Shown here in pieces: positions 4,645-9,388 of a stretch of DNA of 40,843 nt. The position numbers were made by a program, and so were the translations under genes. Source of the DNA: a virus; UHGV virus genome UHGV-1472163; one strand, written 5' to 3'. Within the stretch, counting starts at the first letter, position 1. Every line of letters starts with the position of its first letter. The notes beneath the pieces were generated by a model that worked only from the letters and a program-made list of their open reading frames with translations, did no database searches and was not told the DNA's origin.

Positions 4645-5133
4645 TTATTTGATAAGAAGTGAAGGTTTCCCAACCTTGAGTTGAGCGCCGGGGATATTTA
4701 TTCCTGCTTTTAGTTGGTGCTTGATTGCCAACTTGTCGGCTTTAATTGTCGTTTCGAACTCAACGTATTCAGGAGGAAGGGCGCTTGAGTCGATGATTTC
4801 TACAGTTTCTGACGGTTTGCGGATTGTTACCTGGTGAATACCTGCTCTAATCTTTTTCTTGCCAACCATTTCAAGCGATGACGCTATATATGATTTGATG
4901 CTGTCAATCTTATTTTGAATTACTGCGGCTCGCTCATTCAGCGACTTTGCCTCTTCCTTGAGGCGTTCAGCATAACCAGATTCATTTTTAATGACGGAAA
5001 GAAGTTGCTCTATTTTATCGGTAAATTCTCCTTCCATGCCTTCTATTGTGTCAGCAATCATCTCTGGTTCTAAATCTGAATCCATCAATTTTGCGTATTC
5101 ATTGGCAATTTCATACAGTTTGCTCACTGGCAA
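4645..5133 (-). CDS. Gp157-like protein associated with RecT recombination modules
   Basis: 162-aa acidic coiled-coil protein immediately downstream of and overlapping recT; family assignment from memory only. Confidence 0.45.
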   Translation of the reverse strand: MPVSKLYEIANEYAKLMDSDLEPEMIADTIEGMEGEFTDKIEQLLSVIKNESGYAERLKEEAKSLNERAAVIQNKIDSIKSYIASSLEMVGKKKIRAGIHQVTIRKPSETVEIIDSSALPPEYVEFETTIKADKLAIKHQLKAGINIPGAQLKVGKPSLLIK

Positions 5134-6013
5134 CCTCCAGTTTCGCTTTGCATTCTGCGTAAATGGCTTGTACGTTCTGCTGCAATTTCATTCCAGATGT
5201 CAGGCGATATGCTTCTGCAAAATATCGCTTCAAATCATCCATGTTTTCTGCCTGAGCCATTTCATCGCAAAGAAGTTGTGCTTTATCCATTATTTCCTGC
5301 TGGCGTTTCCGTTCATCTTCGCGGATATCTTCCTCTGATTTGTGCGGCATAACTGGTTCCTGATGCATACCTTCATCTTCGTTAAGAAGGTGAATGGCAT
5401 TATCCAGTCGCTGGGCTTTAGGCCAGTATTTGCTGGCGCGTTTAACTATTGTTTTACGCGCCATCTCTTCCCAGAATGTTTTCCACGGTCCATTCTTTGC
5501 CTTGCTCGTTGCTTCCACAGCTTTAATTTCTGCCAGACTCATTTCTTCAGTCAGGTAGTCACCATCTGCTGTTTTAACCGTGCAATAACCTCCAACAATA
5601 GAGCCTCGCTCACCAAATGCGTTGTATTTGTGGGTTGGTGCTGAATCAAGGCCATTTGATTCATAGGTGTCGTTTGAGTACACCAGTTTGCATTGCCCCC
5701 ACTTAATAGAACCTGTCGATTGCGCAAGGTGAAGTAATCCCATATAGCTGATATCAAGGCAAACCATGCCGTCGCGCGGAACTAGATAAGCAAGTTTGCT
5801 GGCCGGGTTTAAGGTGATGCCGATCGCCGCAACATTGATGATGGCGTTCTGTGCGCTGGTTGGGTTTGCCAGTGCTGTTTTAGCCAGGTAATCGTTTTTC
5901 TGGAAATACTGAATTGCAAACTGGCTTTCCTTAGCCCATGTCACCGTCTGTTCAGTCAATGCTCCGCAGAATAACTGCTCCTGCTGTTTAACGAATTCAA
6001 CGATATTGCTCAT
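5111..6013 (-). CDS. recT: RecT-family single-strand annealing recombinase
   Basis: 300-aa ORF with RecT/Bet-like core; sits in the recombination-module position of the pL operon. Confidence 0.85.
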   Translation of the reverse strand: MSNIVEFVKQQEQLFCGALTEQTVTWAKESQFAIQYFQKNDYLAKTALANPTSAQNAIINVAAIGITLNPASKLAYLVPRDGMVCLDISYMGLLHLAQSTGSIKWGQCKLVYSNDTYESNGLDSAPTHKYNAFGERGSIVGGYCTVKTADGDYLTEEMSLAEIKAVEATSKAKNGPWKTFWEEMARKTIVKRASKYWPKAQRLDNAIHLLNEDEGMHQEPVMPHKSEEDIREDERKRQQEIMDKAQLLCDEMAQAENMDDLKRYFAEAYRLTSGMKLQQNVQAIYAECKAKLEVASEQTV

Positions 6014-6321
6014 GCTGCTTCTCCATAAATGTGTCTGCGTTTGAATATTGCGAAGGCATATTCAGCCTTAACTCTTTCGGTTATTGCATCCCAGAACCAT
6101 TCAGCGGCTTTTTCCTGATAGTTACAGTCAGCATCTTCCAGCCAGTCGATAGCGTCCTTAGTGTGTTCATCTGGTTTATATGAGCGAAGCATTTCGCTTA
6201 TTGGGTCGCAACGTTTGCAGAGGCGATCAACTTCACTGTTGATTCGTTCGTAATCTTCATCAGTAAAACTTGCGATTATTTGCGATATTTCACGCTTATC
6301 ATTCAGAGTCAGAATCATCAT
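6010..6321 (-). CDS. Hypothetical protein (103 aa) upstream of recT
   Basis: Track ORF; occupies the gam/abc-like slot; no motif recognised. Confidence 0.55.
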   Translation of the reverse strand: MMILTLNDKREISQIIASFTDEDYERINSEVDRLCKRCDPISEMLRSYKPDEHTKDAIDWLEDADCNYQEKAAEWFWDAITERVKAEYAFAIFKRRHIYGEAA

Positions 6322-6402
6322 CTTTCTCCTGTTCTTTGTGCTGATTGAGCATTTTGTTCATCTGACGAATGAACTCTTCGTCTGACCAGTTATCTGTAAA
6401 AC

Positions 6403-6555
6403 TCATTTCCTGCGATACCATGGAAGGTTGATAGCTGATTTCATCGCTTTATTTGCTTCAAGCCACATTTTGGAATCACCAATAAATCTGGCTATTACTG
6501 CTTTGTTTTGTGCAGCACGAAGCATCTGGTGATTAATGGCTATTTCATTGCGCAT
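6403..6555 (-). CDS. kil: Kil-like host-killing / cell-division inhibitor protein (50 aa)
   Basis: Hand-translated ORF MRNEIAINHQMLRAAQNKAVIARFIGDSKMWLEANKAMKS...; IARFIGDSKMW resembles lambda Kil IATFIGDEKMF as I recall it; position directly downstream of cIII as in lambda. Confidence 0.5.
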   Translation of the reverse strand: MRNEIAINHQMLRAAQNKAVIARFIGDSKMWLEANKAMKSAINLPWYRRK

Positions 6556-6671
6556 AAGGCCTCCAGTTGTTTCTTTGCTGCTCTGATTAATTGTTTAACT
6601 CGGCGTGATAATTCAGATTCGTGCGGGTAGAAAGCGGACATGACGCCGCTACCCGCGAGCTGAAAGTGCAT
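6540..6671 (-). CDS. cIII: CIII-like FtsH protease inhibitor
   Basis: Track ORF 6540..6728 trimmed to MHFQLAGSGVMSAFYPHESELSRRVKQLIRAAKKQL; matches lambda CIII pattern (MQYAIAG...SESLLERITRKLRDGWKRL). Confidence 0.6.
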   Translation of the reverse strand: MHFQLAGSGVMSAFYPHESELSRRVKQLIRAAKKQLEALCAMK

Positions 6672-6749
6672 CATGGGTAACTCCTTCTGTTTGATTGCAT
6701 AACGAAAATGCCTCTGGTGAAGCATCATTGGTATGCGATAAAGCCGCGC

Positions 6750-7118
6750 TCAGGCGGCTTTGATAGTCATATCATCTGAATCAAATATTCCTGATGTATC
6801 GATATCGGTAATTCTTATTCCTTCACTACCATCCATTGGAGGCCATCCTTCCTGACCATTTCCATCATCCCAGTCGAACTCACAAACAACACCATATGCA
6901 TTTAAGTCTTTCGAAATTGCTATAAGCAGAGCATGTTGCGCCAGCATGATTAATACAGCATTTAATACAGAGCCGTGTTTATTGAGTCGGTATTCAGAGT
7001 CTGACCAGAAATTATTAATCTGGTGAAGTTTTTCCTCTGTCATTACGTCATGGTCGATTTCAATTTCTATTGATGCTTTCCAGTCGTAATCAATGATGTA
7101 TTTTTTGATGTTTGACAT
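6750..7118 (-). CDS. Hypothetical protein (122 aa), AT-rich moron
   Basis: Track ORF; acidic C-terminus; lies between cIII and the N-proximal morons. Confidence 0.55.
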   Translation of the reverse strand: MSNIKKYIIDYDWKASIEIEIDHDVMTEEKLHQINNFWSDSEYRLNKHGSVLNAVLIMLAQHALLIAISKDLNAYGVVCEFDWDDGNGQEGWPPMDGSEGIRITDIDTSGIFDSDDMTIKAA

Positions 7119-7136
7119 CTATTCATATCCTCATAG

Positions 7137-7163
7137 ATAAAAATCGCCCTCACATTAGAGGGC
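7137..7163 (-). terminator. Putative Rho-independent terminator (tL-like)
   Basis: Stem GCCCTC/GAGGGC followed on - strand by T5. Confidence 0.3.
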
Positions 7164-7267
7164 AAAGAAGATTTCCAATAATCAGAACAAGTCGGCTCCT
7201 GTTTAGTTACGAGCGACATTGCTCCGTGTATTCACTCGTTGGAATGAATACACAGTGCTTATTCGTA

Positions 7268-7738
7268 CTAATAAAATACCCAATTTTCTGTTTCTTGGTT
7301 GTGTCCAAAGTTATATTCAATATCTGATGTTGATGTATCAATATTTTTCATCCCATCAACAAGAGTTGATACAACAGCCAAATCTTGTTTTATTCTCATT
7401 AAATGGTATTTCTTCCGGCGCAATAAACTTTCAATAGCAAGTTTCTTCGTTGGGAATGCAAAAGATCTTTCTGCATTTTTTGCTACTTTCTTAATTGCAT
7501 ATCTATTTCTCCTTTGTTTCCATTCCTGTAACCACTGATTTGGTGCTGGTTTAAAATTAACAATCCAATGCGCAGGAACCAACCATGCATAATGCTCTGT
7601 CTGATGAAAAGCTATATATTGAAGTGCGAATATTTTGATTCCATCTTCTTCAACTGTCGCTTGGAATCTCCAGAAAACAGGCATTCCCTCATGTTCAGTT
7701 TCTGATTCAGGAAAAGGTACGCTCCATGATTTTGTCAT
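7268..7738 (-). CDS. Hypothetical protein (156 aa), AT-rich moron in the sieB/ral position
   Basis: Track ORF; low GC; preceded by TTATTTGAGGTGAGAT-ATG, identical to the leader of the next gene. Confidence 0.6.
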   Translation of the reverse strand: MTKSWSVPFPESETEHEGMPVFWRFQATVEEDGIKIFALQYIAFHQTEHYAWLVPAHWIVNFKPAPNQWLQEWKQRRNRYAIKKVAKNAERSFAFPTKKLAIESLLRRKKYHLMRIKQDLAVVSTLVDGMKNIDTSTSDIEYNFGHNQETENWVFY

Positions 7739-7851
7739 ATCTCACCTCAAATAATTCAGTGCAGTGTTTATTCTGTTGTTTATGCCAAAAGAAGGCAGAC
7801 TATGCGGCCTGTGATGTTAGATTTACTTTCATTTTTGAACGGCAGCTACAA

Positions 7852-8115
7852 TTATGATGGAATGTACAAAACCTCTTTCCAGTTCATAGAAGTGGATGAT
7901 GGCATAAAATAATCCCACGACTCGTTAGCTACTAACTCTTTATTAACTGTGGTGGCAGCAATTTCGGCACCACCTTTATTATTAAAAATGTCGTTCGAAT
8001 ACTGACATTTTCCATCTGCATGCACATATAAAATATCATATGTCTCTGTATCGTAATCACCACTTATGTCTCTGATAACAATTCCTGGCTTCAATGATTT
8101 AATTTTCTTGTCCAT
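7852..8115 (-). CDS. Hypothetical protein (87 aa), AT-rich moron
   Basis: Track ORF; same 19-bp leader as 7268..7738; directly downstream of the N-like gene. Confidence 0.55.
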   Translation of the reverse strand: MDKKIKSLKPGIVIRDISGDYDTETYDILYVHADGKCQYSNDIFNNKGGAEIAATTVNKELVANESWDYFMPSSTSMNWKEVLYIPS

Positions 8116-8123
8116 ATCTCACC

Positions 8124-8423
8124 TCAAATAAGTGGTTTGCTGCCTAATTTCATTTTCTGGCGACCAACACAAGTAACACCCATTTCACTGCGTGGCTTGC
8201 GGTAGTAAATACGGTTCTGTTTACGCTCGACTTCTTCTGCCTTCTTGCAGCGAAGGCTTCCGAGTGATGCTGCTTTGTCTGCTCTGACGCAACCAGAGAG
8301 CTTTAGCGCAATTTTTCGCGCCAGTCGCTGCTCTTGCATTGCCTGTTCACGTTGAGCCTGTCTGCGTGCTCTGCGGCGATTTCTGGCGTTATCGTCAGCC
8401 AGATATGTAATGACTACTGTCAT
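8124..8423 (-). CDS. N: N-like transcription antiterminator
   Basis: First gene of leftward operon downstream of nutL; N-terminus MTVVITY... with arginine-rich motif NARNRRRARRQAQ; resembles P22 gp24 N-terminus as recalled. Confidence 0.55.
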   Translation of the reverse strand: MTVVITYLADDNARNRRRARRQAQREQAMQEQRLARKIALKLSGCVRADKAASLGSLRCKKAEEVERKQNRIYYRKPRSEMGVTCVGRQKMKLGSKPLI

Positions 8424-8529
8424 GTTGACCTCCGATGATTGACTTTGGCGGTGACGCGCCGGGTGCTTATCTTCCGGTTGCCGTCGTGCAGCTGCACTTC
8501 ACGCCACCCCAAAGCCAACTACTCTTTGG

Positions 8530-8571
8530 TTCCCGCATTTCGGCGGGACAATCCCATCAATGTTAAAGAGC
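8530..8571 (-). promoter_or_regulatory. nutL: boxA (GCTCTTTAACA) plus boxB hairpin
   Basis: On - strand GCTCTTTAACA followed by hairpin TCCCGC-CGAAAT-GCGGGA; same boxA/boxB pair recurs on + strand after cro. Confidence 0.5.
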
Positions 8572-8599
8572 TTGCCAACCTGTTCCGTTTGGCTACCAG

Positions 8600-8700
8600 C
8601 GTCCTGCTGATGGCTTAAATTTAAGATCTCTTTAATTAATGGTCAAGAGTGTTTTTGAAGAAAACTTAAATTTTCTTTCGTAACTTAAGTTTGGCTTTGA
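8600..8700 (-). promoter_or_regulatory. Putative PL promoter and OL operators
   Basis: On - strand TTGACC-17 nt-TAAATT; flanking AAGA/TCTT half-site-like motifs (TTTGAAGAAAACTTAAAT) resembling the OR operators. Confidence 0.35.
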
Positions 8701-8710
8701 TTTTTAAAGG

Positions 8711-8737
8711 AAATAAAAAAAAGGGGCGAATGCCCCC
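8711..8737 (-). terminator. Rho-independent terminator after c2
   Basis: GGGGGCATTCGCCCC hairpin immediately after c2 stop followed by T8-9 on - strand. Confidence 0.5.
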
Positions 8738-9388
8738 TTATGGAAGGTTTGCTAGTTTTGCATCGACAACTACGCCGATGATTTTGCAGTTTCCGTTGAT
8801 CTCGATCATCGGATATTGTGGGTTAAGTGGTTTTAGAAACTTCCTGCCTGCATCAATAACTAACTTCTTGAAAGTTGCCTCGTTTTCTCCTTCGAGCTTT
8901 GCAACTACCAGTTTCCCGTTACGCGGCTCTACTTCAGGATCGACGAGTATTATCATTCCTTCAGGGATACTGAGACCGGCCGGAGCCGTCATTGAGTCTC
9001 CCTTCACGTCCAACCAAAACGAATCTTCTGAACAGTCTACGGTTGTATCGTACCAGTTATCTATTGCACGCTTATGATATGGTTCTACAGCTTCCATCCA
9101 GCATCCTGCGCTCACCCAGCTAATCAGAGGGTATGACCCTCTTGGATCATGCCTACTGTGATAGGCAATGTTTGAAAGACTTTCCTCTCCTTTCATCAGA
9201 TAGTCAGGGGAACACTTCAACGCATTAGCCAGGGCGAGAAGATTCTCTCCATTTGGCTCTGTCTCAGAGCGTTCCCACTGAGATATGGCAACATTAGACA
9301 CGCCGACCATCTTTCCAAGTGCGGCCTGCCTGATCTTGAGTTCTTTTCTCCGAGCGCGAATGCGCTCTCCCATCAATTGAGTTTTCAT
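8738..9388 (-). CDS. c2: Prophage repressor, P22 C2 type (HTH plus S24 LexA-like peptidase domain)
   Basis: 216-aa ORF closely matching P22 C2 as recalled (MKTQLMGERIRARRK...GVVVDAKLANLP); divergent from cro across operator region. Confidence 0.9.
   Translation of the reverse strand: MKTQLMGERIRARRKELKIRQAALGKMVGVSNVAISQWERSETEPNGENLLALANALKCSPDYLMKGEESLSNIAYHSRHDPRGSYPLISWVSAGCWMEAVEPYHKRAIDNWYDTTVDCSEDSFWLDVKGDSMTAPAGLSIPEGMIILVDPEVEPRNGKLVVAKLEGENEATFKKLVIDAGRKFLKPLNPQYPMIEINGNCKIIGVVVDAKLANLP

Follow-up and report, generated by a model that had tools for sequence, protein, structure and literature searches.

A hypervariable slot between N and a predicted PreS small RNA in the leftward region of a lambdoid prophage

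We analysed a stretch of viral DNA of 40,843 nucleotides (nt), UHGV virus genome UHGV-1472163, called the window below, and in it the segment at 6750-8131, between the gene of an N-like antiterminator and cIII. An earlier note, made from the letters of the sequence, had described this segment as an AT-rich cluster of accessory genes, two of them behind an identical 19-base leader, and had suggested an exclusion or defence function. The three minus-strand open reading frames (ORFs) that it listed, of 87, 156 and 122 amino acids (aa), do lie between the N-like gene and cIII, and all convincing genes in 6300-8700 run leftward, on the minus strand. They are AT-rich, but moderately so, with a GC content of 35.2%, 35.0% and 37.9%, respectively, as compared to 46.2% for the window and 49.3% for the N-like gene. 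The structural half of the window is HK620-like, i.e. that of a P22-like Lederbergvirus, so the P22-like framing of the earlier note was right, and the families of the flanking genes agree with an accessory slot between N and cIII of a P22/HK620-like lambdoid prophage. It is likely that the segment forms an accessory part of the early leftward (pL) operon of such a prophage of Escherichia coli. The parts of the slot are, in leftward order:

8108-8177, minus strand: conserved block at the 5' boundary, comprising the N 3' end and the junction, 70 nt, 97% identical to 933W and HK97
8113-8131, minus strand: first copy of the 19-mer, consisting of TT ATT TGA from the end of N, GAGGTGA as ribosome-binding site, and ATG, with which the 87-aa gene starts
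7852-8115, minus strand: cassette 1, the 87-aa gene, acidic product with an isoelectric point of 4.75, phrog_33140
7755-7815, minus strand: 3' cassette linker, a weak hairpin at 7796-7811 and a T-run, then GGCATAAACAACAGAATAAACACTGCACTG
7736-7754, minus strand: second copy of the 19-mer, which gives the 156-aa gene its ribosome-binding site and ATG and nothing else, joined to the linker as GCACTG-AA-19-mer
7268-7738, minus strand: cassette 2, the 156-aa gene, of the HK97 gp45 / 933W p19 / phi24B vb_24B_11c family, phrog_1636

The 19-mer, TTATTTGAGGTGAGATATG, occurs exactly twice in the window, both times on the minus strand and before the 87-aa and 156-aa genes, as had been noted. When up to three mismatches were allowed no further copy was found in the window, and none was expected from 100 shuffles. 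It was described as a leader, but it is not free-standing; it is the end of N together with a ribosome-binding site and a start codon. On the coding strand the first copy reads ..AAA CCA CTT ATT TGA GGTGAGAT ATG, and bases 1-8 of the 19-mer are the last codons of N with the TGA stop (..CTT ATT TGA; ...KPLI*). The GAGGTGA is a long Shine-Dalgarno match that overlaps this stop codon. Judged by the sequence comparisons, the 5' boundary of the slot is the conserved block of about 70 nt, of which the 19-mer is the last part. HK97 and 933W have another N allele, of the H-19B type, and in them the block is found past the stop codon of that allele. The annotated N of these two phages stops 58 nt before gp45 and p19 (HK97, L125 2439-2507; 933W, L126 2439-2507), and the gap holds, outside the annotated N, the 3' end of the other N family (...VTCVGRQKMKLGSKPLI*). 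This remnant is a vestigial N end that has been retained as a boundary block.

A comparison of the slot across relatives, as proposed in the earlier note, showed that the content between the 19-mer and the downstream block is variable. The loci taken from IMG/VR (at least 120) were sampled by an exact match to the 19-mer, and frequencies in the sample are biased. With the other loci in hand and the window they give the 125 occurrences listed, and in these the 19-mer nearly always stands after ...SKPLI* or VTCVGRQKMKLGSKPLI*, or after short remnants. Directly behind it, in viral contigs, at least 12 unrelated ORF families were observed; among the matches listed, and with the bias just mentioned, the 156-aa gene follows 65 times and a gene like lambda orf28 about 40 times, the others being ORFs of 83, 107, 121/149, 118, 62, 60, 56, 53, 52 and 87 aa. 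Most loci listed have one copy of the 19-mer only. With so many families behind it, and a slot content that varies combinatorially, the idea that the 19-mer is a reused cassette junction is correct, and the junction is the boundary between N and whichever gene comes next. Several N alleles adjoin it as well as several downstream families, with similarity breakpoints at 7754/8108 and at 8143, i.e. the same sequence is found between unrelated neighbours and similarity breaks there, as at a mosaic boundary. A scan of species-representative genomes gave eight matches to the 19-mer, of which the one in E. coli alone is relevant; those in Listeria, in Clostridium and in several metagenome-assembled genomes resemble ribosome-binding sites matched by chance and were set aside.

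The genomes of 933W, HK97 and 611R6 match the window from 7137/7163 to 7754 and then again from 8108. Relative to these three, the window therefore has an inserted 87-aa cassette (7755-8107), with the repeated 19-mer at its bounds. E. coli SCU-124 is 99.5% identical over 5000-8143, a block with the 87-aa gene, the 156-aa gene and the 122-aa gene, and then continues into another N allele. The two cassette genes had been treated as a pair, but they do not travel together: of 5426 complete E. coli genomes, 593 have the 156-aa gene and 8 have the 87-aa gene, and in one locus (L053) the 87-aa gene stands alone.

Measured from the 19-mer to the hairpin before the 122-aa gene, the slot holds more than 35 different line-ups of one to six ORFs, 230-1495 bp long, among the loci listed; the stretch between the end of N and this hairpin is hypervariable. 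Many of the cassettes share one 3' end, GGCCGCATAGTCGGCC (a hairpin with five G+C base pairs) and TTTATTTTT, then GGCATAAACAACAGA, and the linker at 7755-7815, after the 87-aa gene, is a slightly degenerate copy of it. Of 130 sources (the fetched loci and the window), 65 have the linker core, TTTTGGCATAAACAACAGA, and the linker segment matches 386 E. coli genomes, where it stands behind various genes; its homologue in lambda is the sequence that directly follows ral. What follows the linker is ATAAACACTGCACTG and the PreS region described below, or the ribosome-binding site of another cassette, or AA and the 19-mer. The last of these joints, GCACTG-AA-19-mer before the 156-aa gene, was found behind seven upstream cassettes (87, 107, 101, 62, 140/149 and 207 aa, and ral), and twice in one locus (L097). 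Slot-mates that could be identified are Ral (PF11058, E-value 7e-48 in other occupants) and a 207-aa protein with the nucleotide-modification-associated domain Nmad5 (PF18757, E-value 7e-72). Other alternative cassettes encode a 62-aa DUF7167 protein and a 149-aa protein with two hydrophobic segments (phrog_3054); these and the Nmad5 cassette were seen in L049, L075, L118, L145 (E. coli UPEC_U013) and other loci.

Downstream of the second cassette the variable part ends, and the following features were identified:

7226-7253, minus strand: perfect inverted repeat, GTGTATTCA at 7226-7234, 10 bases, and TGAATACAC at 7245-7253
7139-7226, minus strand: predicted homologue of the PreS (LPR1) small RNA (sRNA), 86 of 88 bases identical to lambda, no gaps
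7137-7165, minus strand: intrinsic terminator, equivalent to tL2a and the predicted PreS 3' end, stem at 7144-7165 and T-run at 7137-7143
6750-7118, minus strand: ea10, 122 aa, DUF2528 (PF10800, E-value 1.1e-46)

Both the perfect 9-bp inverted repeat with its 10-base spacer and the terminator-like hairpin (about 7137-7163) had been pointed out before and were found as described, but they are not parts of a cassette; they lie in the conserved PreS/LPR1-tL2a region known from lambda. The gap of 149 bp between the 156-aa gene and the 122-aa gene is identical to the lambda gap between ral and ea10 at 136 of 141 aligned bases (about 96%). In lambda LPR1, now renamed PreS, is an Hfq-dependent sRNA of about 88 nt encoded between ral and ea10, with the terminator tL2a as its 3' end (10.1101/2024.10.31.621285). 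It is made in the lytic cycle, raises the translation of dnaN and supports phage DNA replication, and it is conserved among many lambdoid phages and prophages (10.1101/2024.10.31.621285). The match at 7139-7226, in which both differences from lambda fall in the terminator loop, satisfies the published conservation limit of at least 92% identity and at most three gaps (bioRxiv 10.1101/2024.10.31.621285), and by this sequence identity it is a homologue of lambda PreS. Its 5' end was placed by counting 88 nt back from the U-tail. The terminator has an 8-bp stem with five G-C pairs followed by TTTTTAT, stands upstream of ea10, and aligns to lambda, 933W and mEpX2. As RNA the inverted repeat grows to a stem of 12 bp, immediately 5' of the PreS homologue; it is invariant in the window, lambda, 933W, HK97, 611R6 and mEpX2. 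Among lambda, 933W, HK97 and mEpX2 there is practically no variation from GCACTG to the end of the terminator stem, and in 611R6 the common block stops just short of the terminator. Compared with shuffled sequences, the intergenic RNA from the 156-aa gene to ea10 folds with z = -6.2, and the 91-nt stretch with PreS and the terminator with z = -4.9. An Rfam scan of 6300-8800 gave no match, and Rfam has no family for PreS.

The 122-aa gene was one of the three proteins in which no domain had been recognised. For the 87-aa and the 156-aa protein this holds. The 122-aa protein, however, matches PF10800 with 158.1 bits (gathering cut-off 22) over 104 of 104 model positions, and phrog_646 with an E-value of 2.4e-70. 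It is identical to lambda Ea10 at 120 of 122 residues (98%), and by this identity the gene is to be regarded as lambda ea10 and not as a moron; it stands outside the variable slot, with the PreS/tL2a block immediately before it and cIII after it. The lambda gene is non-essential (PMC10695390), and its product is an abundant early protein whose function is not known (PMC3961180). We also observed one strongly hydrophobic stretch in Ea10, SVLNAVLIMLAQHALLIAIS, at about residues 49-69, with a Kyte-Doolittle mean of 2.05 over 19 residues. It may be a helix buried in the fold or an anchor in the membrane, a surprise in a protein that once went by the label 'ssb'. The position of ea10 varies too: E. 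coli K71-77 has a 103-aa 'superinfection exclusion protein' there (L146 894-1205), 611R6 a different ORF of 77 aa (L004 1865-2098), and in HK97 (L125) the position is empty.

The family of the 87-aa gene is small and uncharacterised, and the gene itself is rare. It falls into four clusters in a collection of 5.8 billion proteins, and an exhaustive HMMER search added about ten relatives of 77-117 aa, which share the motif KPG..VRDIS..YD...DVL....G.C.YS.DVF. One homologue is located downstream of N in another prophage, and a full-length homologue, KB57_201, belongs to a Klebsiella phage of the Vequintavirinae, with 39% identity and a template modelling (TM) score of 0.77-0.81 for the fold. The Vequintavirinae are taken as a strictly lytic group. 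The fold of the 87-aa protein is predicted with confidence, which supports that this is a real gene, and the structure comparison proposed earlier, a Foldseek search of the model against viral models, returned the KB57 homologue as the sole match; for both cassette proteins such searches were carried out without any functional match. Some long repetitive proteins also matched the 87-aa protein. Two of them (P0047 and P0048) were discarded as low-complexity tandem repeats, and two others, P0041 (5511 aa) and P0049 (2986 aa), which match the N-terminal half in 21 and 5 repeated stretches, are probably of the same kind.

The 156-aa gene, on the other hand, is a long-catalogued hypothetical gene of HK97 and of Shiga-toxin (Stx) phages. 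Its product matches phrog_1636 with an E-value of 8.3e-111 over 156 of 156 positions and is 98% identical to HK97 gp45 and 933W NP_049479. The protein is about 98% identical across 83 phage records, including H-19B and BP-4795, and is always annotated as hypothetical; family members with 54-70% identity occur in Pectobacterium, Brenneria, Cronobacter and Rosenbergiella, and a follow-up search with the family profile added one new member. Across the Enterobacterales 40 columns are invariant, which supports that this gene is also real. The Cronobacter member stands between N and cIII and the Pectobacterium member just upstream of xis-int, both in the leftward operon. In complete E. coli genomes up to four copies per genome were found. 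The 156-aa protein is soluble; it has no hydrophobic segment, its ends are acidic and its centre is basic, with a net charge of +12 over residues 53-130. Its structure was predicted with low confidence (predicted local distance difference test, pLDDT, 61), with a long helix at residues 98-130. A literature search for the protein (HK97 gp45, L0079, vb_24B_11c and the protein accessions) found nothing.

Upstream and downstream of these genes lie the other parts of the leftward region:

8618-8646, minus strand: pL-like promoter (TTGACC, 17 nt, TAAATT), just downstream of the cI terminator
8531-8571, minus strand: nutL-like site, boxA GCTCTTTAACA at 8561-8571 and a boxB-like hairpin at 8531-8549, read by eye
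8124-8423, minus strand: N-like antiterminator gene, 99 aa, PHROG 271, E-value 4.8e-37
6540-6728, minus strand: cIII, PF08134, E-value 4e-30, match over residues 20-56
6403-6555, minus strand: kil, PF06301, E-value 1.7e-20, phrog_2055

The position of the nutL-like site between pL and N agrees with the nutL annotations of HK620, 933W and phi24B. The N-like protein scores 20.2 bits against Pfam N_peptide, under the cut-off of 27.9, has an arginine-rich stretch, NARNRRRARRQ, read by eye, and a conserved C-terminus (...VTCVGRQKMKLGSKPLI). At the DNA level the gene is about 98.5% identical to N of phage vB_EcoP-611R6. A simple consensus scan of the minus strand from cI to cIII found no promoter-like site besides the pL-like one at 8618-8646.

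The leftward order is thus the pL-like promoter, the nutL-like site, the N-like gene, cassette 1 with its 3' linker, cassette 2, PreS/tL2a, ea10, cIII and kil. The 5' edge of the slot is the conserved 3' end of N running into a strong ribosome-binding site and an ATG, and the 3' edge is the conserved hairpin, T-run and linker that abut PreS. It is conceivable that cassettes are swapped by homologous recombination at these common edges, by a phage recombinase (RecT, Erf or Red-type) or by that of the host, and that stacks are formed when a 3' linker is occasionally joined to another copy of the 19-mer, which would explain why there are two 19-mers in the window. Soon after infection or induction, pL would drive both cassette genes with the help of N antitermination, and the first one would be translationally coupled to N. 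Early expression from pL is suggested by the fact that the genes are co-directional with pL, that the N stop codon overlaps the first ribosome-binding site, that terminator-like hairpins separate the cassette units, and that there is no other promoter-like site in the scan; the positions of the 156-aa relatives in leftward operons, and of the 87-aa homologues after N and in a Vequintavirinae phage, also support early-lytic expression, as do the slot-mates that could be named, Ral and the Nmad5 protein. The weakest step concerns what the proteins do. They may be dispensable early accessory factors that aid lytic growth in particular hosts, and counter-defence or host takeover, as for Ral, seems the most likely task. 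Taken as a whole, this is the explanation that we find likely.

Several points weigh against it. All domain, sequence-to-structure and fold searches were negative for both cassette proteins, the absence of promoters rests on a simple consensus scan, and sieB, which lambda has in this slot, is active in the lysogen from a promoter of its own. The 149-aa slot-mate (phrog_3054), with its two hydrophobic segments, could be an exclusion protein. The recombination mechanism is read from the breakpoints in the sequences and is to that extent putative, and 19 bases are short for efficient homologous exchange; yet the first copy lies within the conserved block of 70 nt. Finally, the IMG/VR loci were chosen by the 19-mer that they carry, which biases the frequencies.

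The same observations may be taken one step further, so that the stretch from N to PreS would be a dedicated plug-and-stack locus for swapping and stacking early counter-defence genes by recombination over short homologies, with a fixed 5' adaptor (N stop, ribosome-binding site and ATG) and an equally fixed 3' adaptor (hairpin, T-run and linker), and with the acidic 87-aa and the basic 156-aa protein as new inhibitors of bacterial immunity. We regard this as doubtful. If it were true the 156-aa protein would be the more consequential of the two, as it is present in most 933W-like Stx phages.

The defence function that the earlier note proposed would instead make the 87-aa and 156-aa genes, with or without the 122-aa gene, a superinfection-exclusion or anti-phage module protecting the lysogen. 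Some observations speak for it: lambda has sieB in this slot and HK620 has hkaP, which is putatively an exclusion gene; the genes considered here are accessory and rich in AT; many prophages, Stx prophages among them, have retained the 156-aa gene with about 98% identity and in up to four copies per genome; and E. coli K71-77 has its annotated superinfection exclusion protein at the ea10 position. Our searches gave nothing to support it. No PADLOC-DB 2.0 family matched the 87-, 156- or 122-aa protein even at an E-value of 1 or less, nor any alignment member of the 87-aa and 156-aa families. These two proteins, searched singly and with every member of their family alignments, had no match in Pfam or NCBIfam, their PHROG labels give no function, and sequence and profile searches of the PDB were negative, as were the fold searches. 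For the window proteins there was no match to the SieB family in Pfam or PHROG, and none to the Ral model (PF11058) in Pfam. The 87-aa and 156-aa sequences are also absent from the supplements of an accessory-gene screen (PMC12373910). The two proteins contain no hydrophobic segment, with maximal Kyte-Doolittle scores over 19 residues of 0.56 and -0.03. SieB, by comparison, is associated with the membrane, and its gene has a separate promoter within the pL operon. Here no promoter-like site was found between pL and cIII besides pL itself, and the genes stand in line with pL, the first one coupled to N, so that an early-lytic role fits better than a defence expressed in the lysogen. Moreover, the two genes are not co-inherited, the 87-aa family also occurs in a Vequintavirinae phage, and the 122-aa gene is ea10, whose product is an abundant early, lytic protein in lambda. 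A defence module is therefore unlikely in our opinion.

It is even harder to believe that the 156-aa protein is a nucleic-acid-binding regulator of the early programme of the phage, acting for instance in recombination, replication or transcription, and not an accessory factor aimed at the host. The net charge of +12 over its central 80 residues and the predicted long helix at 98-130 would suit such a role, and the gene is always found in the early leftward operon beside regulatory or recombination genes. There are also sub-threshold matches to DNA-binding families among the 21 members of the alignment, zf-H2C2 in 8 and Put_DNA-bind_N in 5, the best with an E-value of about 0.05, but these Pfam matches are far under the cut-offs and the structural model is of low confidence. 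Since lambda, mEpX2 and many further lambdoid phages have otherwise similar early operons without this gene, it is no core regulator. That the repeated 19-mer is a regulatory element, an sRNA target or a translational operator co-regulating both genes, and not a boundary, is very improbable, because the exact identity of the copies between differing flanking bases and the unusually long anti-Shine-Dalgarno match (GAGGTGA) are set against a first copy that is simply the end of N, a 19-mer that precedes unrelated genes in other phages and is mostly present as a single copy, and a pairing with PreS that is no better than for shuffled leaders (-19.0 as compared to -19.2, and -21.1 as compared to -21.3 kcal/mol).

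Returning to the exchange of early accessory genes, the explanation that we prefer, the closest known system is the region from N to cIII of lambda (N, sieB, orf28, ral, PreS/tL2a, ea10, cIII, kil). It is the same operon in the same orientation with the conserved parts in the same order; ea10 is 98%, the PreS/tL2a block 96% and the sRNA 98% identical, the linker matches the sequence after ral, and N ends in the same ...PLI* motif. The difference is in the slot, which holds sieB, orf28 and ral in lambda and the 87-aa and 156-aa genes here, and the lambda region compared has no exact 19-mer. In HK97 (N, gp45, tL, cIII) and in 933W and phi24B (N, p19, ea10/'ssb', cIII) the 156-aa gene is 98% identical, and in HK97 and 933W it is preceded by the same 19-mer and 70-nt N-end block and followed by PreS. 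HK97, 933W and phi24B differ in having a single cassette and an H-19B-type N that stops upstream of the vestigial N-end block; HK97 is without ea10, and the window has the 87-aa cassette in addition.

Conserved boundary sequences at the junctions of lambdoid modules are an established idea. The modular theory of lambdoid phages is said to go back to Susskind and Botstein, and 'boundary sequences' were reportedly described for HK620 by Clark et al. in 2001. Our junctions are alike in that short sequences are common to phages with differing flanking genes and that the breakpoints fall there; they differ in that there is both a 5' and a 3' adaptor, with the 5' one duplicated to give tandem cassettes. 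This pair of adaptors was not described in the literature that we searched. The adaptor pair and the tandem stacking are a tidy instance of the boundary-sequence idea and no new kind of thing, and ea10, PreS and the terminator are already known parts. Ral, our analogy for the function, stands in the same slot, at the same junction (via orf28) and before the same 3' linker, and is likewise small, non-essential and useful in certain hosts, being needed solely on hosts with type I restriction (PMC10695390). Neither cassette protein resembles it in sequence (no match to PF11058), and an anti-restriction role for them would be by analogy.

Of the five features noted earlier, three belong to the standard equipment of lambda: the 122-aa gene, the inverted repeat and the terminator. 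The rest illustrates clearly how small early genes are exchanged among lambdoid phages at fixed junctions, and leaves two conserved, uncharacterised proteins. In HK97 and in Shiga-toxin phages of the 933W type the gene that directly follows N is the 156-aa gene, which is present in about 11% of complete E. coli genomes; with such a distribution, a role in overcoming host defences or in induction, if true, would bear on the spread of Stx phages. The two adaptor sequences are also a simple handle for harvesting the cassettes of the slot from genome data for functional screening.

The region around the slot has some further features. At its upstream end are the following:

8738-9388, minus strand: cI
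8720-8739, minus strand: strong intrinsic terminator directly after cI, 8-bp stem with five G-C pairs, T8

This terminator is the equivalent of HK620 tIMM. The prophage is without the 122-aa ORF that mEpX2, S87, 611R6 and HK620 have between cI and pL. At the other end, the true start of the cIII ORF of 62 aa is probably the internal Met at 6674; RefSeq calls a cIII product of 44 aa at the same place in related genomes. Past cIII and kil the leftward genes continue with a 103-aa ORF and the RecT recombinase. The 103-aa ORF (6010-6321, minus strand; phrog_3486), which is acidic, and a 40-aa ORF (6299-6421, minus strand), both between kil and RecT and without a match in Pfam, sit where lambda has gam.

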